Source: Planctomycetota bacterium (GTDB lineage Bacteria; Planctomycetota; UBA1135; UBA2386). From it: DNA of 64,000 nt. Both the position numbers and the translations under genes were made by a program. Of the stretch, positions 1 to 64,000 are shown one piece after another. The notes under the pieces were generated by a model. It saw only the letters and a program-made list of their open reading frames with translations. It was not told where the DNA came from and made no database searches. The stretch covers positions 4,032,001-4,096,000 of the forward strand of contig OZ245838.1 of assembly GCA_965228735.1 (NCBI GenBank), read 5' to 3'. Every line of letters starts with the position of its first letter. The stretch's first letter is position 1.

Positions 1-2100
1 CGCGTCGACGTCGTCGAGCGACAGCGCCGCGAACGCGCGGTTTGCGAACAACTCGCCGGGCGCCTCTTCGGCCGCGGTCGACCCCAGCAGCTTCCGGGCG
101 GCCTCGAACTCGCCGAGAGCGAGCAGCGCCGCCGCCAGGTTCGAGGCGGACAACGGCGAGCCGGCAGTCGCGTGGGCTCGGGCGAAGTAGCCCTTCGCCG
201 CGTGGGCGGATCCGTGACCGAGCTCGAGCGCGCCGCGCGCCGTCGCGATGACCGGATCGTCGGCGAGCGCGATCGCGCGATCGAGCAGTCGGCGCGCCTG
301 CGGCACGTTGCCCTGGCGCGCGTAGAGGATCCCTGCCGCCGTGAGCGCCATCGCGTTGCGCGGCTCGAGCTGCACGGCCCGTTCGATCGAGGCCAGCGCC
401 TGGCGGACCTGACCGCCATGGAGCTCGGACTGCGCCCGATCGAGCCAGTGTCCCGCGAGCCCGTGCCGGGTGACGGTCAGCCCTTCGTCGGCCGGCAGCT
501 CGACGGGCAACGCATCGGGCGTCCGCACGCCGATGCCCGACGGGTGGCGCGCCGAGCCCTGGAGCGAACCACCGCTCCAGTCCTCGGAGCGCAGTTCATC
601 GAGCCCGATCGAGTTGAACTGGAACCCGCGCCGCAGCTGCACGAGCCGATGCGACCCACGCCGCACGGCCTCCTCGATCCACGTATCGTCGAGCACGCGG
701 GGCGACAGGATGATCATGAGCTCGACCTCGGTCCGCGACTGCACGGTGCTCGAGAAGAGCTGCCCGACGAACGGGATGTTCATCAGGAACGGCACGCCCT
801 GACGGGTCTCGTCCTTCCGCGTGCTCCGCAAGCCGCCGAGCGCGATCGCCTGACCGTCGGACACCCGCACGAGCGTCGTCGCCGTGCGTTCGCTGACGAC
901 CGGCACCTCGACCAGACCGTCGGGCGTGATCACCGTGCCGGTGCGCTCGCGCACGGAGGGCGAGATCGCGACCGTGAGGATGCCGTCCTCGCCGATCATG
1001 GGGCGCACGTTCAGCGTCACGCCGGTATCGACGAAGTCGACGCTGAACTCGGTTCGCGCCAACCCGCCGTTGTCGATGACCTCGCGCGAGATCACGGGGA
1101 CCTGATCGACGACCGCGATGTTCGCCGGCTGGTTGTTCATCGTCGCCACGCGAGGGCTGCTCAGCACGCGCACCTCGCCCTGCCGCTGCAGCGCGTCGAC
1201 GAACGCGGAGAAGTCACCCGTGTCGAGCACGCCGAACGTGAGCGCAGCGCCGCCCGACGCGGCGGTCTGCGTCAGCACGCCGCCGCCCGTCGCCGTACCG
1301 ACCTTGTTGCTGTTGAAGAGGTCGGGCAGCAGCGACCAGTTGACGCCGAGGCTGTAGCTGTCGTTGAGGCGCACCTCGAGGATCCGCGCCTCGAGCGACA
1401 CCTGTCTATTCACGCGCCGCAGCGTCGTGTCGATGAGCTCGCGCAGGCGCGCGACCCGCTGCGGACTGGCTTCGACGTGGACGGTCGCCGAGGCGCGGTT
1501 GATCACCGCATCGGCACCGTCACCCAGCACCTGCGGCAGCATCGTCTCGAGATCGGCCCAGAAGTCGACGTCGTTCTGCCCGGCACCCTGCGCGCCGGCG
1601 TTGGCTTGCCCACCGCCGGCCGCGGCGGCGCCCTGCATGTTGGGACCGATCGTGTTCTCGACCGACATCAGGTCCACGTACATCGTCTCGCGCACGCGGT
1701 CGGTCACGCGCAGGAAGCCGCCGTCCCACGAGTACCCGAGGTCCACGCTCTCGAGCAACGCTTCGAACGCCTGCTCGATCGTCGACTGCTTGATGTCGAA
1801 CGTGCACGGCGTCGCGGCGACGTCGGGGTCGACGATCAGATTGATGTCGGAGTCCTTGAACAGCGCGAGCAGCACATCGCCGACCGCGCTGTTGCGGGCC
1901 TGGAGCGATTGCATGGCGCGCCCGGTCGATCGGGTCGCCGAGAGCTCCGGCATCGGAACGACGAGCATCGGTCGATAGACCGCCGAGCCGGCGCCATCGT
2001 CCTGATCCAACCTCGGGGGCGAGGCCTCGCCCATCGGCGTGCAGCACGCGAGGACTGCGGCACCCCAGGCCGCCACTACCGTCTGACAACGTCGCATCAT
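1..2100 (-). CDS. MshL/GspD/PilQ-family secretin with C-terminal TPR extension (3' end runs off the window)
   Basis: Not in the ORF track; translated by hand from ATG 2100 (ATGA overlap with the upstream stop, GGAGAGGAG upstream). Contains DFWADLE, RQVSLEARILEVRLNDSYSLGVNW, VLSSPRVATMNNQPA, TGVTLNVRP and GVPFLMNIPFVGQLF..ELMIILSPRV (secretin core), then TPR-like helices (ALASIERAVQLEPRNAMA). Open to base 1. Confidence 0.9.
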   Translation of the reverse strand, partial: MMRRCQTVVAAWGAAVLACCTPMGEASPPRLDQDDGAGSAVYRPMLVVPMPELSATRSTGRAMQSLQARNSAVGDVLLALFKDSDINLIVDPDVAATPCTFDIKQSTIEQAFEALLESVDLGYSWDGGFLRVTDRVRETMYVDLMSVENTIGPNMQGAAAAGGGQANAGAQGAGQNDVDFWADLETMLPQVLGDGADAVINRASATVHVEASPQRVARLRELIDTTLRRVNRQVSLEARILEVRLNDSYSLGVNWSLLPDLFNSNKVGTATGGGVLTQTAASGGAALTFGVLDTGDFSAFVDALQRQGEVRVLSSPRVATMNNQPANIAVVDQVPVISREVIDNGGLARTEFSVDFVDTGVTLNVRPMIGEDGILTVAISPSVRERTGTVITPDGLVEVPVVSERTATTLVRVSDGQAIALGGLRSTRKDETRQGVPFLMNIPFVGQLFSSTVQSRTEVELMIILSPRVLDDTWIEEAVRRGSHRLVQLRRGFQFNSIGLDELRSEDWSGGSLQGSARHPSGIGVRTPDALPVELPADEGLTVTRHGLAGHWLDRAQSELHGGQVRQALASIERAVQLEPRNAMALTAAGILYARQGNVPQARRLLDRAIALADDPVIATARGALELGHGSAHAAKGYFARAHATAGSPLSASNLAAALLALGEFEAARKLLGSTAAEEAPGELFANRAFAALSLDDVDA

Positions 2101-2753
2101 TTCTCTCCTCTCCCCGTATCTCCGTCGATGGCCGTGGCCATCGCGGGCGCGGCGACTACGTCGGCCGCGGCTGCGGACGCGGCCAGTTCTGCCGCGCGCC
2201 GCCGTTCGAGCTCACTCCGGAACTCGCGCGGCCAGGCGTTCTCGAAATCGTAGGTGAGCACCCGGCCGCGCCAGATCCCGACGACGGCGCCGCGCTCGAT
2301 CCGTTCGACGGCGAAGCCCTGGATCTCCTCGCCGGTCCCGACCACCTGCCCGCCCAGAACGGCGCGGTCGGCGCGGTCGCTGAGCATGACCACGCCGAGC
2401 TGCAGCTGCGGCGGCTCCGTACCACGCCAGCCGACCGACGGCCCGCCGGTCTCGGCGAGCGGCGTCGGGGCGATCGCCTGCAGGGCCAGCTCGGTGACCG
2501 CCATCCGAACGGGCATGCCGATCGCGTAGCTGCCATGACGAGCCAGCAGGTCCTCCCAGTTGGCCGCATCGGCGCCGGCCAGGACGTCGTTCAGACCATC
2601 CTCGTCGTCGAAGTCGTCGCCCATGGGATCGAACGGCACCGGCGCCGGGCTGCTGCCGAGATCGAGGAGCGCATTGCCAGCGACTGCGCCGCCCACCACG
2701 AGCATGAGCACGGCGACGACGGGCGGCACTCCCTTGCGTTGCTTCTTGCTCAT
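2097..2753 (-). CDS. Pilus/secretion accessory protein, MshK/PilP/GspC-like
   Basis: N-terminal TM; C-terminal LQLGVVMLSDRADRAVLGGQVVGTGEEIQGFAVERIE resembles the small beta domain of MshK/PilP; lies immediately upstream of the secretin. Confidence 0.6.
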   Translation of the reverse strand: MSKKQRKGVPPVVAVLMLVVGGAVAGNALLDLGSSPAPVPFDPMGDDFDDEDGLNDVLAGADAANWEDLLARHGSYAIGMPVRMAVTELALQAIAPTPLAETGGPSVGWRGTEPPQLQLGVVMLSDRADRAVLGGQVVGTGEEIQGFAVERIERGAVVGIWRGRVLTYDFENAWPREFRSELERRRAAELAASAAAADVVAAPAMATAIDGDTGRGEK

Positions 2754-3265
2754 CGCCCGGCCTCCGCCGTGCCCTCGTGATAGGTCGCGAGACCCAGTTC
2801 GAAACCGACGGTGCCGGGCCCGTCGGGCAGGATTCGCCCGGTCTCGACGACGACGAGGTCGGTCGCGGTCTCGATGCTGGCGATGAACTCGCAGAGTGCC
2901 GTGGGCTCGGCTATCCCGACGGTTCGATAGGTCTGCTTCTCGGCAGCCGACGAGGCGTTGGCCTTGAGCTGCACCAGTTCGACACCGTGCTCGTCACCGA
3001 GCTGTTGGATCGTGCGCAGCGTCCCGGGCACATCGGCGGCGACCGTCAGCTGCCAAGGGCTAGGCTCGGGAACGTTCTCCACGACGGGAGCCGTCCGCGC
3101 CGTCTCGAGCTCGTCCTCGAGATCCAGCAGCCGATCGCCCGCCGCCTGCAGCGCCGCCTCCGCGCTGGCACGCTGCCAGCGCACGACGGCCGCGAACCCG
3201 ACCTGCAGCACCGCAACCGCGATCACGACACCGGCGACCACCCGCCGCTTCTCCATGGTCTTCAC
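2750..3265 (-). CDS. PilO/GspM/MshJ-like inner-membrane alignment protein
   Basis: C-terminal part of track ORF 2750..4462. GTG 3265 overlaps the upstream stop (GTGA) and has GGAGG 6 nt upstream. TM + coiled coil + ferredoxin-like C-terminus (LCEFIASIE); follows the PilN-like domain. Confidence 0.65.
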   Translation of the reverse strand: MKTMEKRRVVAGVVIAVAVLQVGFAAVVRWQRASAEAALQAAGDRLLDLEDELETARTAPVVENVPEPSPWQLTVAADVPGTLRTIQQLGDEHGVELVQLKANASSAAEKQTYRTVGIAEPTALCEFIASIETATDLVVVETGRILPDGPGTVGFELGLATYHEGTAEAGR

Positions 3266-4674
3266 GAGTGCCTCCATGCGATCTGCACGCGGAACTGGAC
3301 ACGTTCGGGGTGACCGACCACCTCCTCGACCTCGTCCTTGCCGAGGTCGTGCAGGTAGGGCAACGCGTGGAGCGCGTCGACGAACTGCGCCAGCAGCGCG
3401 AGCGCCTCCTGGCGACTGTCGCCTTCGACGATGCCGGTGATCGTGACGGGCGCGGCACTCGCGAACTGGATCGAACCGATGTGGACGTTCGCCGGCGCGA
3501 GGTTGCTCACCTCGGCGAACATCCGGCTGACGGGTCGGCGCATGCTGAGCGCGAGATCGATCGTGCCGGCAGCGGCAGTCTCGCCGTCGGGAGCCGCGGC
3601 CGCTTGCACCTGGATCAGTTCGTTCTCCAGCCGAGTGCGCTCGACGGCCGCGCGGTCGAGTTCCGCTGTCGTCGCGATCAGCTCGCGGCCGTCGTTGACG
3701 CCATAGGCGAAGACCGCGAGGCCCGCAGCCGCCACCGCGGCGACAGCCGCAACACGGCGCCGCGGCCATGGCACGTCGAGGTGCGGTTCGCGCTCGAGCG
3801 CCGGCACACGCTGTCCGGCGAACAGCTGCTCCATGAGCATGAGCGTTGCGAGGCCGGGCGTCGTATCGATCTCGTCGAGATCCCAATCGAGCTCGGGGAA
3901 CTCGATGTCGTTGGCGATGCCGGCGAGCAGCTCCATCGACTCGTCGTCGAACGGGAACCGTCGACCCAGCACGAGCATGCTCGGCTCGTCGTGTCCGGAT
4001 TCCGTGAGCCAGCTCTTCGTCCGCGGCACTTCGATCGCGAGCTGCGCCGCGAGCGCGAGGGACTCCTCCGTGCCGCCCCGCCCGCCGAGCAGGAAGCGGC
4101 GCACCTTCACCGGCACCCCGCGCTGGCAGTAGACGTAGCGGGCCCGGCCGCCGTTGAGCTCGAGAACTGCCGACGACGCCGCGTCGATCGGCGCCGCGAG
4201 CGCCATGCAGGCCTCCGAGGTGTGCACGCCCAGCACGTCGAGCCCGACGGCCCGACACGCCTGGTCCATCCGCTGGACGACGCTCTGGGGCAAGGCCGAA
4301 ACCGCGACCTCGAACCGGCCGTCCCAGGCCGCGCGCAGCATGCGCGGCGCGAGCAGGACCTCGCTCGACTGCGACATGCTCGACAGGCGCAGCGCCTCGC
4401 GCTTGAGGAACCCGACCATGTCGGCCACCGCCATGCGAGGGACTGCGGCAGCGAAGTGGCACGCCCGACGGTCGCCGATGATCACATGCACACCGGCGGC
4501 ACCCCGCATCGGATCGCTACCGAGCGAGGACAGGGTCGCGCGCAACGTCTCGGCGTTGATGTCGACCAACGGCAGCCGCTCGCAGCTGAAGATCCGCGCG
4601 TTGCCGCCCGCGGCAGCGCCGATCGTCAGCGTGACGCTGCCCTCCTCGAACTCGATGATCGCGTGGGTCTTCAT
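3262..4674 (-). CDS. Fused PilM-like (actin fold) - TM - PilN-like protein (GspL/MshI architecture)
   Basis: Start MKTHAIIEFEEG at ATG 4674. PilM-like segments (ACRAVGLDVLGV, AVLELNGGR, QLAIEVPRT), one TM, then a PilN-like domain (MFAEVSNLAPANVHIGSIQF..VTITG..AQFVDAL). Confidence 0.7.
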   Translation of the reverse strand: MKTHAIIEFEEGSVTLTIGAAAGGNARIFSCERLPLVDINAETLRATLSSLGSDPMRGAAGVHVIIGDRRACHFAAAVPRMAVADMVGFLKREALRLSSMSQSSEVLLAPRMLRAAWDGRFEVAVSALPQSVVQRMDQACRAVGLDVLGVHTSEACMALAAPIDAASSAVLELNGGRARYVYCQRGVPVKVRRFLLGGRGGTEESLALAAQLAIEVPRTKSWLTESGHDEPSMLVLGRRFPFDDESMELLAGIANDIEFPELDWDLDEIDTTPGLATLMLMEQLFAGQRVPALEREPHLDVPWPRRRVAAVAAVAAAGLAVFAYGVNDGRELIATTAELDRAAVERTRLENELIQVQAAAAPDGETAAAGTIDLALSMRRPVSRMFAEVSNLAPANVHIGSIQFASAAPVTITGIVEGDSRQEALALLAQFVDALHALPYLHDLGKDEVEEVVGHPERVQFRVQIAWRHS

Positions 4675-4682
4675 GGCACTGC

Positions 4683-5351
4683 TCAGAATCCGATGTCGTC
4701 GGTCGTGCCGAACGAGCGATCCGGTCCGGCGCTCGTCAGCGTGTGGGTCGCGGCATCCCATTGCAGGGTCGTGCCGAACCCGTCCGTGTCGTAGGAAGCG
4801 CCGAGTCCGATCGCCGTGCGGACCGTCGGCCAATCGCCTGCGACCGAGCCGCCGGCCTCGATGTGCTCGGCGAGCACCTCGACGATGAGTCGAACGCGGG
4901 CGTAGGTCCGGCGCGTGCCCGGCACCGCGCCGGCGACGACCACGACGTGCTCCTCGGTCGCCGCGCCGTCGTCCACGCCGTTCTCGCCCCGACTGTGAAC
5001 GGTGGCGGTGTTGGCCGCGGCATCGACGGCGTAGACGTACTCGAGGCCGGCGCCGAACGAGTCGATCACGGCGGTGTTCGCCACGCCGGTCTGCAGATGC
5101 TCGCCGACGAAGTCCGTCGCGGTCAGACTGACCGGGAAGGCCGCGTTCTCGAAGTAGTACGACTCCAGTGCGCGCGCGATCTTCGCAAGCTCGGCGGTCG
5201 CCTCCTGCCGACGGTCCGCCGCGATCACGGCACCCGCGAGCGGCACGGCCGTGCCGAGCAACAGGCCGAGCACGGCGAGCACGACGACGACTTCGAGCAG
5301 CGTGAAACCGCGCTCGCCGGCACCACGGGAAGCGCGAGCGCTACATGTCAT
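4683..5351 (-). CDS. Type IV pilin/pseudopilin, GspG-like, with two head modules
   Basis: Class III signal RG/FTLLEVVVVLAVLGLL with E5; GspG-like C-terminal motifs SRGENGVDDG and SAGPDRSFGTTDDI. Confidence 0.85.
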   Translation of the reverse strand: MTCSARASRGAGERGFTLLEVVVVLAVLGLLLGTAVPLAGAVIAADRRQEATAELAKIARALESYYFENAAFPVSLTATDFVGEHLQTGVANTAVIDSFGAGLEYVYAVDAAANTATVHSRGENGVDDGAATEEHVVVVAGAVPGTRRTYARVRLIVEVLAEHIEAGGSVAGDWPTVRTAIGLGASYDTDGFGTTLQWDAATHTLTSAGPDRSFGTTDDIGF

Positions 5352-6156
5352 CGGCCGTTCCTCCGGTTCGGTCGGCGCCGACCGCGACGACGCCGACCGT
5401 CGAGTCGAGTATCAGCGGCACACCGCCACCATCCACGGCACGGCTGTCGGGCATGCCGAGCCCCTCCATGAGCCCGCCGGCGCCGGTGACGGCCGGCGGC
5501 AGCGGCGTACAACCATGCGCGGCAGTGATCGTCGAGACCGTCGTCCGCGCGTCGTCCATCCGGGTCGTCAGCGCCGCGCGCGTTGCGGCATCCGCCGTGA
5601 GGTACGAGCGGCGCGCGATCGCGTAGTCCCGCATCGCCGCGACCACGGCGTCCTCCTCGGCGTTCGTCATGGTCGCCGCCCAGCGGTAGCCGCTGCGCGC
5701 GAACGCGGCGCGGATGAGGCGCAGGCGAGCACGTTGCCGCGCACGGAGCAATGACTCGGTTCCGACGGAGGCCACGATGTCGTCGCTCGTGTCGAGCTGG
5801 CCGTCGGCGCCGCGACTCCGGATTCGCAACGTGTTCGCAACCATGCCGTAGTCGAGGTCGGCCGCCCCGCCCCACGGATCGTGCCGCCACGGACCGAGCA
5901 CCGGCCCGTTGGCGCCCGCCACGAGGTCGTCGACCGAAGCCGGGAACGCGCCGGTACGCCGGAACCGGTCCCGCGCAGCAGATTCGGCGGTGGCCACGTG
6001 CGACTCGGCCCGAGCGCCGGCGTCGGCGAACGGCACGAGCACCTCGACGGCGAGCACGATTGCGAGACTGCCGGAAGCGATCACGCCGAGCAGCACGAGC
6101 AGAGCGAAGCCCGCCTCGCACTCGCCTTCGTGATGACCGCGGATCGACCCCGTCAT
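5341..6156 (-). CDS. Minor pilin lacking E5 (GspK/PilX-like) with GspG-type head motifs
   Basis: ATG 6156 overlaps the upstream stop (ATGA). AG/FALLVLLGVI has no Glu at +5. Contains DPWG and SRGADGQLDTSDDI, plus a second AVGADRTGGTADDM. Confidence 0.7.
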   Translation of the reverse strand: MTGSIRGHHEGECEAGFALLVLLGVIASGSLAIVLAVEVLVPFADAGARAESHVATAESAARDRFRRTGAFPASVDDLVAGANGPVLGPWRHDPWGGAADLDYGMVANTLRIRSRGADGQLDTSDDIVASVGTESLLRARQRARLRLIRAAFARSGYRWAATMTNAEEDAVVAAMRDYAIARRSYLTADAATRAALTTRMDDARTTVSTITAAHGCTPLPPAVTGAGGLMEGLGMPDSRAVDGGGVPLILDSTVGVVAVGADRTGGTADDM

Positions 6157-7361
6157 TTGCCGATCCCCTTCATCGCGGTGTAGATCGTCGTCACCACGAG
6201 AACGGCGACGCCACCGACGACGATGCCGAGGAACACCGTGACCGCCGGCTCGAGCAGCGCGAGCGCGCGCTTCACCGCGGCCTTGACCTCGCGATCGTAG
6301 AGCCGCCCGAGCTTCTCGAACGTCACGGGCAGGCGACCGGCCTCTTCGCCAACCTGCAGGATGCTCGTCGCGACGGGCGGCAGCAGCTTCGCTTCGGCAA
6401 CCGAGTCCGACAGCCGCGCGCCGCCGATGATCCGTTCGCGGCACTGCAACAACGCCGCGCGGTGGTACGGCGACACGACACCGGCAGCCGCGAGTTCGAG
6501 CGCATGCGGCATCGTGAGGCCGGCCTGCAAGAGCACGCTCATCGAACGCGACAGCTGCGCGACGGCCAACGTGGCGACCACGTTGCGAGCGACGGGCATG
6601 CGGCCGATCCCCGACGTGATGACGTCACGCACGCGCGCCAGTCTGAGGAGCAGACCGAGAGTCACGAGGCCCGCGATCGAACCGATGATGATCGCGACGA
6701 TGTGCGCCTGCACGAAGCCCGAGCAGTCGATGAGCCAGCGGCTCGCCGCCGGCAGCTCGGCGCTCATCTTCGCGATCACGGCGCCGAGGCGCGGCACGAC
6801 GAACGACAGCATGAACAGCACCATCGCGTAGCCAGCCGCCAACACGATCGTCGGGTAGACGAGCGCCTGCCGCACCGTGCCCGCGATCTCGAGCTTCCAT
6901 TCGAGGTAGCCGGCGATCGAACTGAGCACGTTCGGCAGGCTGCCCGATTCCTCGCCCGCGCGAACGAGCGCGCAGTAGACCGCAGGGAACGACCGCGGAT
7001 GCGCAAGCAGCGCGTCGGACAGTAGCTGGCCGTCCGCCACCCGCTCACTGAGGTCGGCGAGCATCCCTTCGATACGAGGATCGTCTTCCTGCTCGCCGAG
7101 GGCGCGGAACGTCATCAGGAGCGGCACGCCGGCGTCGAATGCCTCCTGCATCGCCTGCGTGAGCAGCATCAGACGACGCTGCCCGAGCGCGACTTCCCGC
7201 ACCGGCGCCCGCTCCGACGGCTCGTCGTCGAGCTGCCGGCACTGCAGCAGCGCGCGGCCTTCCGCGTGCAGCTGCTCGTGCAGCGATTGCTCGTCGGCGG
7301 CCTCGAGCTCAGCGACGGCCTGGGATCCGTCGCACTCCAGGATGGTTGTCCGGTATCGCAT
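6153..7361 (-). CDS. Type II secretion F / PilC platform protein
   Basis: AGVPLL, G.LLSDAL..HPRSFP..YCALVRAGEESGSL, ALVYP, and a second repeat VGEEAGRL..LLEP; three TMs. Start ATG 7361 chosen; the track starts at 7397. Confidence 0.93.
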   Translation of the reverse strand: MRYRTTILECDGSQAVAELEAADEQSLHEQLHAEGRALLQCRQLDDEPSERAPVREVALGQRRLMLLTQAMQEAFDAGVPLLMTFRALGEQEDDPRIEGMLADLSERVADGQLLSDALLAHPRSFPAVYCALVRAGEESGSLPNVLSSIAGYLEWKLEIAGTVRQALVYPTIVLAAGYAMVLFMLSFVVPRLGAVIAKMSAELPAASRWLIDCSGFVQAHIVAIIIGSIAGLVTLGLLLRLARVRDVITSGIGRMPVARNVVATLAVAQLSRSMSVLLQAGLTMPHALELAAAGVVSPYHRAALLQCRERIIGGARLSDSVAEAKLLPPVATSILQVGEEAGRLPVTFEKLGRLYDREVKAAVKRALALLEPAVTVFLGIVVGGVAVLVVTTIYTAMKGIGK

Positions 7362-7422: not shown

Positions 7423-8073
7423 CTACTGCTTCTGCGTCAAGATCAGGCCGATGTCGTCACCGGCGATCTCGGTCGTGGCGAGGGACTGCCAGTTGGTGTC
7501 GAACTGGCCGTTGGGCCCGGCGGAGATCACGTACATCCGCTTGTGCCGAGTCGCGTGCGTGCGCCAACCCGAACCGACGTTGATGATGTATGGGCGACCC
7601 CACGGATCGACCGGGGAGCTGCCGGCGGTGTACGGGCCGCGCCAGCGCAGGTTGCCGGTCGTCGCGTACGCGGCGCCCACCTGGCCGCCCGGCGAGTTGC
7701 GCAACAGGTGCTCGTCGAGCAGGTCCCCGCGCGTGCCGTTCATGCCCCACGTGATCCAGCGGTGACCGCGCGTCCACGGGTTCGACGTCGGCATCGCCGG
7801 TCCGGTCATCAGGACGAAGAGCTGATTGTCGTTCCCCGAACTGTTGCGCGCCGGAAAGCTGCCGAGGTCCGCGTTCACCTTCGTGATGGCGGCCCCGAGC
7901 ACCTTGACCTCGGCCTCGGCCCGCGCCCTTCGACCGTCTTCCATGTAGCTGGACAACATCGGCACGGCGATGCCGGTCAGCAGCAGGATGACCGAAAGTA
8001 CGACGATCACCTCGACCAAAGTGAAGCCGACCTCCCGTCGGCTCTCTGGGTATTTCCCGATGGCGGTGGACAT
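7423..8073 (-). CDS. Major pseudopilin/pilin, GspG-like
   Basis: VG/FTLVEVIVVLSVILLLTGIAVP; WRGPY, VDPWGRPY and ISAGPNGQFDT..DDI are GspG signatures; first gene of the operon. Confidence 0.9.
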   Translation of the reverse strand: MSTAIGKYPESRREVGFTLVEVIVVLSVILLLTGIAVPMLSSYMEDGRRARAEAEVKVLGAAITKVNADLGSFPARNSSGNDNQLFVLMTGPAMPTSNPWTRGHRWITWGMNGTRGDLLDEHLLRNSPGGQVGAAYATTGNLRWRGPYTAGSSPVDPWGRPYIINVGSGWRTHATRHKRMYVISAGPNGQFDTNWQSLATTEIAGDDIGLILTQKQ

Positions 8074-8080
8074 GCCAGCG

Positions 8081-8109
8081 GCATCGAGTTTCAAGAACAG
8101 GAACTTGAG
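8081..8109 (-). promoter_or_regulatory. sigma28 (FliA)-like promoter for the pilin operon
   Basis: Minus strand CTCAAG-N15-CTCGATGC, 7 nt before ATG 8073; same spacing and a near-identical downstream sequence as the motif at 31763-31791. Confidence 0.55.
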
Positions 8110-8137
8110 ACGATCACCGCGATACGAACGCGAGTTC

Positions 8138-8167
8138 CTCAGGTTCGATCCCCTCGTCGGCCGATCA
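8138..8167 (+). promoter_or_regulatory. sigma28 (FliA)-like promoter for the PilB/GspE ATPase
   Basis: CTCAGG-N16-GCCGATCA, 5 nt before ATG 8173 (8 nt before GTG 8176). Confidence 0.55.
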
Positions 8168-8172
8168 CGGGA

Positions 8173-9846
8173 ATGGTGACCGAAGCCCCGAAGGACCACG
8201 AAAGCCCCGCGGCAACGGCGGACGGCGACCGCCGCTTCCTCGAGGAAGCGCTGCGCAACGCGCCCGCCGGCGAAGCCGCGGAGATCGAACGCCTCGCCAC
8301 CATGGGGATGATCCCCATGGAACGGGCGTATCAGATCTGGGCGGACATGCTCGGGCTCACGTTCTACGACCTCGACAACCAGCGCACGAACCCGCACGTC
8401 CGGCACCTGATCCCGGTCGACCTCGTCTCACGCCACGAGACGATCCCGATCAGCACCGTCGACGGCGTCCTCGTCGTCGCGCTCAAGAACCCGTTCGACC
8501 TGGCGGCCGTCGACGAGGTCCAGGAGGTCACGGGCATGTCGGTCGAGGTCGCGCTGGCGACGCCCGACGCGATCCGACGCGCGATCGAACGCCTCCACCG
8601 CGGGGCCGCCGGCATCGAGGGCTTGATCCAGAAGCTCGAGAAGGCGGAGATCGACACCGTCGCCGACGGCGACAGTCTGCGACGCCTCGTCGGCCACGAC
8701 GCCGTCGTGCAGCTCGTCGATCACCTGATCGAAGAGAGCCTGCAGGCCCGCGCCAGCGATCTGCACGTCGAGCCGCAGCGCGACCAACTGCGACTGCGGG
8801 TCCGAATCGACGGCGAGATGCAGACGCTCTACGAGCTGCCGCCCGGCCTGCACCGCGCCGTCGTCGCCCGGATCAAGGTCGCCTCGGGCATGGACATCGG
8901 CGAGAGCCGCAAGGCCCAGGACGGCCGCATCGCGGTGTCCGACAACGTCGAGCTGCGCGTGTCCGTGCTGCCGAGCGTGCTCGGCGAGAAAGCCGTGTTG
9001 CGCGTTCTCGACCGCAGCACGGCATCGCACGATCCGGCGAGCCTCGAGATGTCGCCGGCGAACCTCGATCGCTTCCGCCGCGCCTACACCCACCCGACCG
9101 GCATGGTGCTGCTCACCGGCCCGACCGGCTCCGGCAAGACGACCACGCTCTACACGGCGCTCGGCGAACTCAACCGGCCGGAGCGCAACGTCGTGACGGT
9201 CGAGGACCCGGTCGAGTACGAGATGGCCGGCGCGACCCAGGTCCAGGTGGACCCGAAGGCCGACCGCACGTTCGCGAAGGCGCTGCGCAGCATCCTGCGC
9301 CAGGACCCCGACGTCGTGATGGTCGGCGAGATCCGCGACACGGAGACCGCCGCGATCGCGGTGCAGGCAGCGCTCACGGGTCACATGGTGCTCAGCACGC
9401 TGCACACGAACGACGCCCTGGCCGCCGTGCACCGCCTCGACGACATGGACGTCGCGCCCTACCTGCTCGGCCCGGCGTTGCGCGCCGTCGTCGGCCAACG
9501 CCTCGTGCCGCGGATCTGCAAGTCGTGCTCGACCACCGCGGAGCCGATGCCGGGACTGCTCGCGGAGTTCGGTCTCGACCCCGACGGCCGGCACGACGAG
9601 TTCCGCACCGGCAGCGGCTGCGCCACGTGCCGTGGCCGCGGTCGACGCGGCCGCATCGCGATCCACGAGGTGCTCTACATCACCCCGGAGATCGCCGCCG
9701 CGATCTCCCGCAAGGCCGCCCGCGAAGAGGTCCACGCACTCGCCGACGCCGCGGGCTACCGCCCGATGCTCATGGACGGACTCGACAAGGCCCGCGCCGG
9801 GCTCGTGACCCTCGAGGACGTCGCCGCGATCGCGCGCATCCACTGA
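8173..9846 (+). CDS. GspE/PilB-family pilus assembly ATPase
   Basis: ASDLHVEP, QDGRI, Walker A GPTGSGKTTTLY, TVEDPVEY, LRQDPDVVMVGEIRD, TGHMVLSTLHTND, and a tetra-Cys zinc motif (CKSC..CATC). True start lies inside track ORF 7159..9846. Confidence 0.96.
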   Translation: MVTEAPKDHESPAATADGDRRFLEEALRNAPAGEAAEIERLATMGMIPMERAYQIWADMLGLTFYDLDNQRTNPHVRHLIPVDLVSRHETIPISTVDGVLVVALKNPFDLAAVDEVQEVTGMSVEVALATPDAIRRAIERLHRGAAGIEGLIQKLEKAEIDTVADGDSLRRLVGHDAVVQLVDHLIEESLQARASDLHVEPQRDQLRLRVRIDGEMQTLYELPPGLHRAVVARIKVASGMDIGESRKAQDGRIAVSDNVELRVSVLPSVLGEKAVLRVLDRSTASHDPASLEMSPANLDRFRRAYTHPTGMVLLTGPTGSGKTTTLYTALGELNRPERNVVTVEDPVEYEMAGATQVQVDPKADRTFAKALRSILRQDPDVVMVGEIRDTETAAIAVQAALTGHMVLSTLHTNDALAAVHRLDDMDVAPYLLGPALRAVVGQRLVPRICKSCSTTAEPMPGLLAEFGLDPDGRHDEFRTGSGCATCRGRGRRGRIAIHEVLYITPEIAAAISRKAAREEVHALADAAGYRPMLMDGLDKARAGLVTLEDVAAIARIH

Positions 9847-31506: not shown

Positions 31507-31755
31507 TCAGGCCAGAACGTCGAGGTTCTCGCCCTTGCCCGGCTCGGCCGCGCCCTGCGGCGGCGAAGCGGGCGGCGGCGCGTCGGCCGAAGCCGCGCGC
31601 GTCGGGGCCGAGCGGGCGGGCGCGCCGCCCTCGATCAGCTGGAGCATCGCCGCGCCGGCTGCGCGTTGCTCGTTGAGCACCTTCGCGAGCAGCGTGATGT
31701 TCGCGGTGCGCACAGCGAGGCCGCCAATGGCCTGGTTGAGGGCTCCGATGTCCAT
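31507..31755 (-). CDS. Small YjfB-like putative motility protein
   Basis: Last 82 aa of track ORF 31507..32913: LLAKVLNEQRAAGAAMLQLI..PGKGENLDVLA matches the YjfB-type pattern; sigma28-like promoter upstream. Confidence 0.7.
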   Translation of the reverse strand: MDIGALNQAIGGLAVRTANITLLAKVLNEQRAAGAAMLQLIEGGAPARSAPTRAASADAPPPASPPQGAAEPGKGENLDVLA

Positions 31756-31762
31756 GCCAGTG

Positions 31763-31791
31763 GCATCGGCGCCGGCTCGGGGTGACTTCAG
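31763..31791 (-). promoter_or_regulatory. sigma28 (FliA)-like promoter
   Basis: Minus strand CTGAAG-N15-GCCGATGC, 7 nt before ATG 31755. Confidence 0.6.
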
Positions 31792-45061: not shown

Positions 45062-45511
45062 ATGCAGTACATGACCGAACGTCCGACCCGTCTCGCCGGG
45101 GGATTGCTCGATGTGCCCCGGACCGTGGACGATCTCTTCCAACGCTTCTGGGGTGACGTGCACCAGCCCCGAACCGCCAACTCCTGGCGGCCGCACGTGG
45201 ACGTCGTGGAGACGCCGGAGGCCTACCTGCTCCGGGCCGAGATGCCGGGGGTCAACCCGGATGACATCGAGATCACGCTCGCCGGCGACGTGCTGACGAT
45301 CCGCGGCGAGAAGGTCGTCGAGAACACGCTCGAAGGCGAGAGCTGGTGCCTCAGTGAACGCACCGGCGGCCGCTTCGAGCGCAGCTTCAAGCTGCCCGGA
45401 CCGCTCGCGGACGACCAGGTCGAGGCCGAGTCCCGACACGGCATTCTCGCGATCCGGGTGCTCAAGGCCGAGCAGGCCAAGGCACGTCGGATCAAGATCC
45501 GGTCGGCCTGA
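45062..45511 (+). CDS. Hsp20/alpha-crystallin small heat-shock protein
   Basis: WRPHVDVVET, AEMPGV, LTIRGEK, ERTGGRFERSFKLP, HGIL; GGAG RBS before ATG 45062. Confidence 0.95.
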   Translation: MQYMTERPTRLAGGLLDVPRTVDDLFQRFWGDVHQPRTANSWRPHVDVVETPEAYLLRAEMPGVNPDDIEITLAGDVLTIRGEKVVENTLEGESWCLSERTGGRFERSFKLPGPLADDQVEAESRHGILAIRVLKAEQAKARRIKIRSA

Positions 45512-62912: not shown

Positions 62913-63335
62913 TTACCGCAAACTCTCGATTCGGCCCGCGGCGTCCACGATCTGGGTGATCCGGAGACCGTAGGCGTCGTCCACGAGCACGACCTCGCCG
63001 CGGGCGACGAGCTTGCCGTTCACCCGCAGATCGACCGGCTCCTCGCTCTTCTTGTCGAGCGCGATCACGCTGCCGGGCACGAGCTTGAGCACGTCCTCGA
63101 GGCACATCTCCGTGCGACCGACCTCCACCGAGATCGGAATCTCGACATCCAACAGCAGGTCGAGGTTCTTGTTGGCCTCGCCCTGGGAGCCGTTGCCGAG
63201 TTGACCGAAGGCGACCGGCTGAACCGCCGCTTCCGCGAACTCGGCCGCGGCGTTGGCGACTTCACCTTCGCTCCAGCTGCCGCTGCCTTCGCCGTCGCCG
63301 CTGGCGCCGGTGTTGCTGTCATTGGGGTCGGTCAT
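62913..63335 (-). CDS. fliN: Flagellar motor switch protein FliN
   Basis: NLDLLLDVEIPISVEVGRT, GSVIALDK, VNGKLVARGEVV..YGLRITQI. Confidence 0.95.
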   Translation of the reverse strand: MTDPNDSNTGASGDGEGSGSWSEGEVANAAAEFAEAAVQPVAFGQLGNGSQGEANKNLDLLLDVEIPISVEVGRTEMCLEDVLKLVPGSVIALDKKSEEPVDLRVNGKLVARGEVVLVDDAYGLRITQIVDAAGRIESLR

Positions 63336-63350
63336 GCGTCCTGGGTTCGT

Positions 63351-64000
63351 CTAACCGTCGATGACATCGGCAACCTGGAGCCCGATTCTGTTGCCAATCC
63401 GCCCGACATGGGCCCGGAACTTCGGCTTGCCCTGGACCGGGACCGTCGCCAGCTGCCCGAGACGGCGCTCGAGCGGGATCACGTCACCGGGCTGCAGGTC
63501 CAGCATCTGCCGCAGCCGAATCCGGGCTTCCCCCAGCTCGCCAGCCAGGTGGATCGGCACCCGCCGCAGCGTCGACGCCAGGGTCTCCTGCATCGCCCCG
63601 ACCTCGACCGTGGCCGTTCGGTCGCGCGTGAAACTCTCGATCATCGGCTCGATCGACGAGAACGGAATCGTCAGTCGGAGATCGCCGATGAGGAAGTCGC
63701 CTGCGACCTGGAAGTAGACCGTCATCACGACGTCCTGCGACGGCAGGATCTGCGCGAACGAAGGATTGCAGAACCGCTTCTCGATCTTCCACTCGAGCTG
63801 CACGACTTCCCGCAGACTCTCGACGATCCGGTCGAGACACGGACCGATCAGCGCCTCGGCAACCGTGTATTCCGCGGCCGTGAAGTCATCAGGGATTCGA
63901 GCGACCTTGCCCGAACCACCGAGGATGCGGTCCACCGCCCCGTAGAGCAGACTCGTACTGGCGGTCAGCAGGCATGGGAACTCGAACGGCTTCAGCTCGA
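63351..64000 (-). CDS. fliM: Flagellar motor switch protein FliM (5' part outside window)
   Basis: VDRILGGSG, FTAAE, NPSFAQI, IPFSSIEP, LQPGDVI, VQGKPKF; frame open to the window end; directly upstream of fliN. Confidence 0.92.
   Translation of the reverse strand, partial: ELKPFEFPCLLTASTSLLYGAVDRILGGSGKVARIPDDFTAAEYTVAEALIGPCLDRIVESLREVVQLEWKIEKRFCNPSFAQILPSQDVVMTVYFQVAGDFLIGDLRLTIPFSSIEPMIESFTRDRTATVEVGAMQETLASTLRRVPIHLAGELGEARIRLRQMLDLQPGDVIPLERRLGQLATVPVQGKPKFRAHVGRIGNRIGLQVADVIDG

Follow-up and report, generated by a model that had tools for sequence, protein, structure and literature searches.

Back-to-back promoters of a planctomycete pilus-type locus probably belong to a broad sigma-28 regulon that differs in spacer length from the late flagellar promoters

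The two back-to-back promoters that lie between a type IV pilin-like operon and its assembly ATPase gene in this planctomycete genome are probably members of a broad, upper-tier sigma-28 regulon, which would be read by the FliA-like factor FliA1 and would also switch on a second sigma-28 factor. The initial annotation of the 64,000-nucleotide stretch analysed here (the window) had proposed that the pilus system belongs to the flagellar regulon and is co-expressed with the late flagellar genes. The sigma-28-like character of the promoters was borne out by motif statistics, by conservation in orthologous loci and by a genome that carries flagellar genes and FliA-family sigma factors; the late flagellar part of the proposal was not.

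The sites in the divergent 99-bp gap (8074..8172), and a third site upstream of a YjfB-like gene, were present where they had been annotated, with their -35 and -10 boxes and spacers as described (Table 1); in the gap, the two -35 boxes are separated by 28 nt. A matrix consisting of the two boxes was built from upstream regions with the window excluded, and its consensus is CTCAAG, 15 or 16 nt and GCCGATR, with the spacer counted after AAG (class A). The held-out window sites scored 14.9 bits (pilin side), 15.8 bits (ATPase side) and 16.5 bits (third site). They have a TAAAG/TCAAG-like -35 box and a GCCGATAA-like -10 box at a fixed spacing on the sense strand, which is the anatomy of a sigma-28 promoter. 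Based on these sequence comparisons, the window sites are almost certainly real promoters and can, with high confidence, be predicted to be read by a factor of the sigma-28 family.

Table 1. Promoter sites and genes of the divergent pilus-type locus, and the third site with its gene, in window coordinates
Feature	Position	Strand	Details
Pilin-side class A promoter	8081..8109	-	CTCAAG 8109-8104, 15 nt, CTCGATGC 8088-8081, 7 nt, ATG 8073-8071
ATPase-side class A promoter	8138..8167	+	CTCAGG 8138-8143, 16 nt, GCCGATCA 8160-8167, 5 nt, ATG 8173 (GTG 8176)
Third class A site, YjfB-like gene	31763..31791	-	CTGAAG 31791-31786, 15 nt, GCCGATGC 31770-31763, 7 nt, ATG 31755
YjfB-like gene	31507..31755	-	82 aa; weak YjfB_motility match, 21.5 bits against a cut-off of 27
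Type IV pilin-like protein	7423..8073	-	216 aa, first gene of the operon; N-methyl motif; GspG-like, below cut-off
PilC/GspF platform protein	6153..7361	-	
Probable minor pilin-like protein	5341..6156	-	no family match; identity inferred from position and N-terminus
Minor pilin/pseudopilin	4683..5351	-	N-methyl motif
Three genes of 470, 175 and 218 aa	2097..4674	-	PilM/N-O-P or GspL-M-C position; roles inferred from position
Secretin with TPR repeats	1..1914	-	best match MshL, below cut-off; extends 167 nt past the window start
PilB/GspE assembly ATPase	8176..9846	+	MshEN domain; start GTG 8176 or ATG 8173

The 16-mer that the initial annotation saw as common to the pilin and YjfB-like sites does occur in only two genomic copies, but it could not be upheld as a separate element. 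Agreement at 12 or more of 13 positions for some pair among the 21 leaderless-type sites arose in 50% of simulations (P about 0.5; the column model had been derived from those 21 sites themselves), and the 16-mer was not kept in orthologs.

The genome is a single contig of 7.19 Mb with 69% G+C, in which 5,429 genes outside the window were called with a hexamer model, their starts being approximate. At 13 bits or more the class A matrix matched 127 of 3,591 upstream regions; three shuffled sets gave 8, 7 and 14 matches, and about 10 of the 127 are expected to be false positives. In the 1,961 gaps between co-directional genes, 74 matches were on the sense strand and 7 on the antisense strand, while convergent gaps carried a match on 3 of 778 strands; the motif is thus commoner than chance would give and follows the direction of the genes. 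The spacer was 16 nt at 71 of the 127 sites, 15 nt at 52, 17 nt at three and 14 nt at one, and pairs of TCAAG and GCCGAT in non-coding DNA occurred six times at spacer 15 and ten times at spacer 16, with 0-4 at every other spacer between 5 and 30. Class A sites were absent from all 67 tRNA upstream regions. That the window sites are chance matches in GC-rich DNA, or sigma-70 or sigma-54 promoters, is therefore scarcely credible: some sites among the 127 are expected to be false, but the signal is spacer-specific, strand-oriented and conserved. Neither a sigma-70 consensus nor a strict sigma-54 box was found in the gap, and those two readings of it were rejected for that reason. Strict sigma-54 boxes are present upstream of two other window genes, at 45062 (+) and 58752 (-), and 15 exist genome-wide. 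An unbiased gapped-word search of the upstream DNA was swamped by repeats; these include a palindromic element with about 30 copies and dominate the counts. Class A sites on both sides of a divergent gap are rare (3 of 822 gaps); the other two such gaps (G000:C1:4391891-4394003 and 5660330-5663456) each have a glycosyl- or methyltransferase gene in the pair.

Conservation was followed in 40 related genomes, which are incomplete metagenome-assembled genomes and not independent of each other. Orthologs of the pilin were present in 18 of them, mostly beside the same divergent ATPase gene. At a threshold of 12 bits, 13 of 17 pilin-side and 10 of 15 ATPase-side regions had a class A site, so both back-to-back sites are conserved. 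The 18th and most distant pilin locus had no ATPase match and no class A site. A further 18 loci were found, of which 7 were omitted as apparent duplicates or cut and 11 were scored; at the same threshold, ten of these further loci (one possibly repeating an earlier locus) had the site in 8 of 10 on the pilin side and 6 of 10 on the ATPase side, and a 39%-identical locus in a record titled delta proteobacterium had none. Across eight loci the boxes were kept, while the spacers and the middle of the gap diverged. The 18 relatives in which the pilin ortholog was found are all among the 28 flagellated ones, and none of the 12 without flagella yielded it (kin that are not independent), a distribution that links the pilin cluster to flagellated cells.

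The position of the start codons was also informative. An in-frame ATG or GTG stands exactly 7 nt past the -10 octamer at 26 of the 127 class A sites, with 0-5 at each other distance, and in the relatives' versions of the window sites the start codon is usually 6-8 nt past the -10 box. If the numbering of E. coli FliA (C-13 G-12 ATAA N-7; 10.1101/2020.01.02.893370) is applied, +1 is predicted on the base 7 nt past the -10 box, which is the A of ATG 8073 for the pilin operon, and at 8175, adjoining GTG 8176, for the ATPase gene. The initial annotation had started the ATPase at ATG 8173, but GTG 8176 aligns with the starts in relatives and is probably the homologous start. Its claim of leaderless mRNA is compatible with these spacings, and transcripts at both window sites are likely to be leaderless. 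Throughout the genome, starts that follow closely on TAnnnT boxes are common, so leaderless starts would not be special to the class A regulon.

A pilus is a plausible identity for the machine encoded in the window, whose components have mixed affinities to pilus and type II secretion families. The nearest subfamilies, all below their cut-offs, were GspG for the pilin, GspF for the platform protein, MshL for the secretin and, for the ATPase, PilB (484 bits) ahead of GspE (471 bits). No PilT was found in the cluster, the 470 and 218 aa genes had no Pfam match and none of the three genes at 2097..4674 had an NCBIfam match. Whatever the window machine is, the T4a-type operons pilM and pilT-pilB-pilC elsewhere in the genome carry class A sites.

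The flagellar set of the genome comprises seven flagellin or flagellin-like genes, flgL, FliF, MotA and three FliA-like sigma factors; no MCP or CheW was found in the genome (93% complete), though flagellar genes and MotA are present. In the window, 62913-64000 (-) holds the end of a flagellar operon running from flgB to fliL, with a FliM-like gene followed by genes recognised by position only. Class A sites were found at flgB (20.3 bits), fliD, fliJ, the fliA2 operon and three minor flagellins, with a weak site of 9.4 bits at a fourth flagellin. In E. coli, flgB is driven by FlhDC and sigma-70, and in the usual flagellar hierarchies sigma-54 or a class 1 activator stands above sigma-28.

The main flagellin genes, however, carry a different arrangement. 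In the relatives, CT(C/A)AAG was present in 35 of 56 flagellin upstream regions and was followed by a CCG-type box after exactly 14 nt in 31 of the 35. A class B matrix trained on these regions has the consensus CT[C/A]AAG, 14 nt, nCCG[A/G]nnAT and reached at least 20 bits at six sites in the genome, namely three main flagellins, motA, an flgM-like gene and one unknown gene. The three window sites scored 3.7, -5.8 and -3.2 bits on this matrix, against 20-23.5 bits for the flagellins, motA and the flgM-like gene. The initial annotation had proposed flagellin and flgM as a check on the motif; three of seven flagellins are in class A, but the three main flagellins and the flgM-like gene are in class B, and co-expression of the pilus genes with late flagellar genes is accordingly not supported. 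A gene for an unknown 168-aa protein (L290:256-762, plus strand), which has no Pfam match, has a class B promoter of 21.8 bits and is a candidate late flagellar gene.

The assignment of spacer to gene is also kept in the relatives: flgM-like promoters were class B in 12 of 13, the flgB upstream region was class A in 22 of 27 with a 14-nt spacer in 0 of 25 scored, and pilM was class A in 29 of 29 with a 14-nt spacer in 0 of 29. For motA the picture is mixed, with class B in only 13 of 29 loci and class A in four distant relatives. Together, 12 of 16 leaders of flagellar units in the genome have class A or class B; the fliK-flgD-E and fliO-P leaders have neither, and fliL has only a doubtful distant site. 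Counts of the strict class B pattern over whole genomes were at background level, and class B is a small class because it does not rise above other spacers at lower thresholds. The flgM-like site combines a class A-type -10 box with the 14-nt spacer. Its gene, the FlgM candidate, adjoins the hook operon; no FlgM match at cut-off was found in the genome, weak FlgM matches were obtained in it and in 4 of 11 relatives, and there was no PDB match. It is very likely, judging from spacing and targets, that class A and class B are two functional promoter classes.

The E. coli FliA consensus TAAAGTTT-n11-GCCGATAA corresponds to 14 nt from AAG (PMC2859248), while the FliA spacing of Bdellovibrio (PMC3627812) and, by our reading, the WhiG search pattern (PMC13595943) correspond to 15 nt. 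Class B would therefore correspond to the classical late promoters, and the window sites to a longer, WhiG-like class. In E. coli, the class 3 promoters of FliA have the -10 box GCCGAT, and class B matches them in spacing and in targets (flagellin, motA, flgM-like; PMC2859248, 10.1101/2020.01.02.893370); the window spacers are 1-2 nt longer, and the upper tier proposed here includes flgB.

Class A extends well beyond flagella. Among pilus-type genes it is found at the window cluster, pilT-pilB-pilC, pilM-N-O-Q, a second pilT, two further PilB-like genes and another pilin, and an MglA-like GTPase gene also has a site. The gspD-E-F operon, a pilB-pilT-pilB cluster and the Tad cluster are without class A, as is a pilin pair downstream of pilC, for which the nearest site is inside the upstream gene. 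A hand-picked set of 24 genes (23 class A, one class B) included, with class A, prkA, ku, clpC, RsbW-like, STAS and Hpt genes and glycosyl- and methyltransferases. The gene rpoN-1 has class A in 7 of 10 relatives (two of the misses being misplaced starts) and rpoN-2 in 0 of 10. There are two rpoN paralogs per genome (L109:13572-15005 (+), L244-L263), only one with class A, and the class A rpoN lies a few kb upstream of pilM in several relatives.

Of the 40 relatives, 12 lack flagellin (at cut-off), FlhA and FlgC. Across all genomes the strict class A motif was counted 441 times, compared with 107 for a wrong spacer; the counts were 341 and 70 in flagellated genomes and 100 and 37 in non-flagellated ones, where the motif was strong in G022, G031 and G038 but not in G015, G016 and G023. 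Among 114 genomes that belong to the phylum but are more distant, the pattern was counted 767 times, against 113 for the reversed pattern as the sole control, so that it may be spread across the phylum. The term flagellar regulon is too narrow for class A, which the early operon flgB shares with fliA2, rpoN and many non-motility genes and which is kept in relatives without flagella. It is very improbable that the pilus genes sit in the late flagellin class and are co-expressed with flagellin, as first annotated; the class A sites at fliD and at three of seven flagellins and the distribution of the pilin ortholog would fit it, but the window sites fail class B, and class A is found at flgB, fliA2 and rpoN and survives flagellar loss.

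The presence of prkA, ku, clpC, RsbW-like and STAS genes, and the persistence of the motif without flagella, would also be expected if class A were a stress or stationary-phase regulon with a SigB-like role that only incidentally includes appendages. This is compatible with the promoter anatomy, but we consider it rather unlikely, as class A or B is found at 12 of 16 flagellar unit leaders compared with class A at 127 of 3,591 regions overall, and pilM has class A in every relative scored.

FliA-like sigma factors were found in 41 of 41 genomes and fall into three clades, which correspond to the paralogs FliA1, FliA2 and FliA3; in the genome studied here two are over the TIGR02479 cut-off and FliA3 is below it. 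FliA1 forms the slowest-evolving clade, its closest PDB match is Streptomyces WhiG, and a class A site precedes its gene in the genome itself (13.1 bits) as well as in 14 of 29 relatives. FliA2 is encoded after flhA-flhF-flhG, with class A upstream in 13 of 15 relatives. Between this class A site and fliA2 lies a small gene for a membrane-type protein without a known family (L096:7536-7814, plus strand), conserved at this place in several relatives. FliA2 is without the residue matching E. coli R74; its loss was considered as the cause of class B and rejected, as the C contacted by R74 is kept. FliA2 is retained in three genomes without flagellin or FlhA (L136, L137, L138, L175), and G022 also retains motA. 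Most relatives have FliA3, which occurs in non-flagellated genomes too and retains R74; partial FliA3-like matches were found in G035 and G027.

Two relatives without flagella, G015 and G023, have no FliA2-clade match at E 1e-40, yet a class A site stands at their pilM, so FliA2 should be dispensable for class A. FliA1 would be the common member among the genomes with class A, with the reservation that these genomes are incomplete. As FliA1 is closest to WhiG, and the class A spacing resembles that of WhiG and Bdellovibrio promoters, FliA1 is the probable reader of class A, with FliA2 the probable reader of class B. Against this assignment stand the wide distribution of FliA3, which could read class A, the retention of FliA2 in three genomes that have no flagellin, the class A motA of four distant relatives and the similar promoters recognised by two WhiG clades of Actinomycetota, by which paralogs need not divide promoters between them (PMC13595943). 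The mixed anatomy of the flgM-like site, the flagellar leaders with neither class and the weak identity of FlgM also weigh against the model. That class A is read by FliA3, by itself or together with FliA1, in an otherwise unchanged model is in our view quite improbable: the occurrence of FliA3 in non-flagellated relatives and its R74 would suit such a role, but G025 and G034 have no clear FliA3 and still have class A at fliA2 and motA, FliA1 is the slowest-evolving paralog with class A upstream of its own gene, and FliA3 is below the FliA cut-off.

Another, broader possibility is that a single pool of sigma-28 factors reads both classes, with spacer and -10 quality setting strength or timing and the paralogs overlapping as in Actinoplanes. 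The -35 box is the same in class A and class B, the positions of D81, R84 and R91 are kept in all three paralogs, motA is class A in distant families, and the two WhiG clades of Actinomycetota, WhiG1 and WhiG2, are described as interchangeable with similar promoters (PMC13595943). We nevertheless regard a single pool as unlikely, because each gene class has its own fixed spacer across genera (14 nt at flgM-like genes but not at pilM or flgB) and because FliA2, which has no R74 residue, forms its own clade and is encoded at the canonical flagellar position.

In the division of labour between FliA1 and FliA2 that we prefer, FliA1 would read class A, reinforce its own expression, initiate leaderless transcription of both the pilin operon and the ATPase gene, and turn on FliA2 via the class A site at the fliA2 operon. 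FliA2 would then read class B under the control of FlgM, and the class A program could correspond to a motile or adhesive cell state.

Sigma-28 control of pili by itself is already known, from Rubrobacter and Actinoplanes (PMC8325347) and for the Tad pili of Bdellovibrio (PMC5430801), and the statement in the initial annotation that pilin genes are usually driven by sigma-54 or sigma-70 made sigma-28 pili seem more unusual than they are. The FliA attack-phase regulon of Bdellovibrio bacteriovorus is also broad, with non-flagellar surface genes and a pilus operon (PMC3627812, PMC5430801), and the motif TTAAG-N16-CCGATA is reported at 92 of 140 attack-phase promoters (PMC3627812). In the portions of these papers that were accessible, one FliA is described, which drives flagellin too, in contrast to the three paralogs and the separate 14-nt class of the planctomycete; the Tad pili of Bdellovibrio are sigma-28 controlled (PMC5430801), whereas the planctomycete Tad cluster has no class A site. 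In the WhiG-RsiG system of Rubrobacter, 12 of 20 predicted WhiG sites were mapped, three of them in a type IV pilus cluster (PMC8325347), and FliA1 is most like WhiG; the planctomycete class A extends further, to genes of the flagellar basal body, to rpoN and to a second sigma-28. The zoospore program of Actinoplanes missouriensis likewise has three sigma factors (FliA1-3), pili and flagella, and a Clp target (PMC8325347, PMC13595943, PMC13689560), but it belongs to another phylum and life cycle, and the accessible text describes no spacer-split classes.

What appears to be new is the two-class arrangement of planctomycete sigma-28 promoters. In a literature search limited to titles and the beginnings of abstracts, with few subscription papers covered, neither a planctomycete sigma-28 regulon or spacer-split FliA cascade nor a master regulator of planctomycete cell-type control was found. 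In Planctopirus, the flagellum is described to form after daughter release, and cell-cycle regulation of fliA is merely assumed in the available text (PMC11958385).

To summarise, these sequence-based results name FliA1 as a candidate master regulator with a predicted promoter list, and the two matrices could supply working promoters for a phylum that has few genetic parts (PMC11958385). Tentatively, the whole could be a spacer-coded sigma-28 cascade of this planctomycete order, in which a WhiG-like, self-reinforcing master acts at about 115 promoters, with pili, the flagellar base, surface glycosylation and one sigma-54 among its targets, and switches on a second sigma-28 that serves only 14-nt late promoters; the motif may span the Planctomycetota and may govern their motile daughter cells. 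If true, the paralogs would be split by 1-2 nt of spacer, and sigma-28 would stand above flgB and rpoN, inverting the usual flagellar order.
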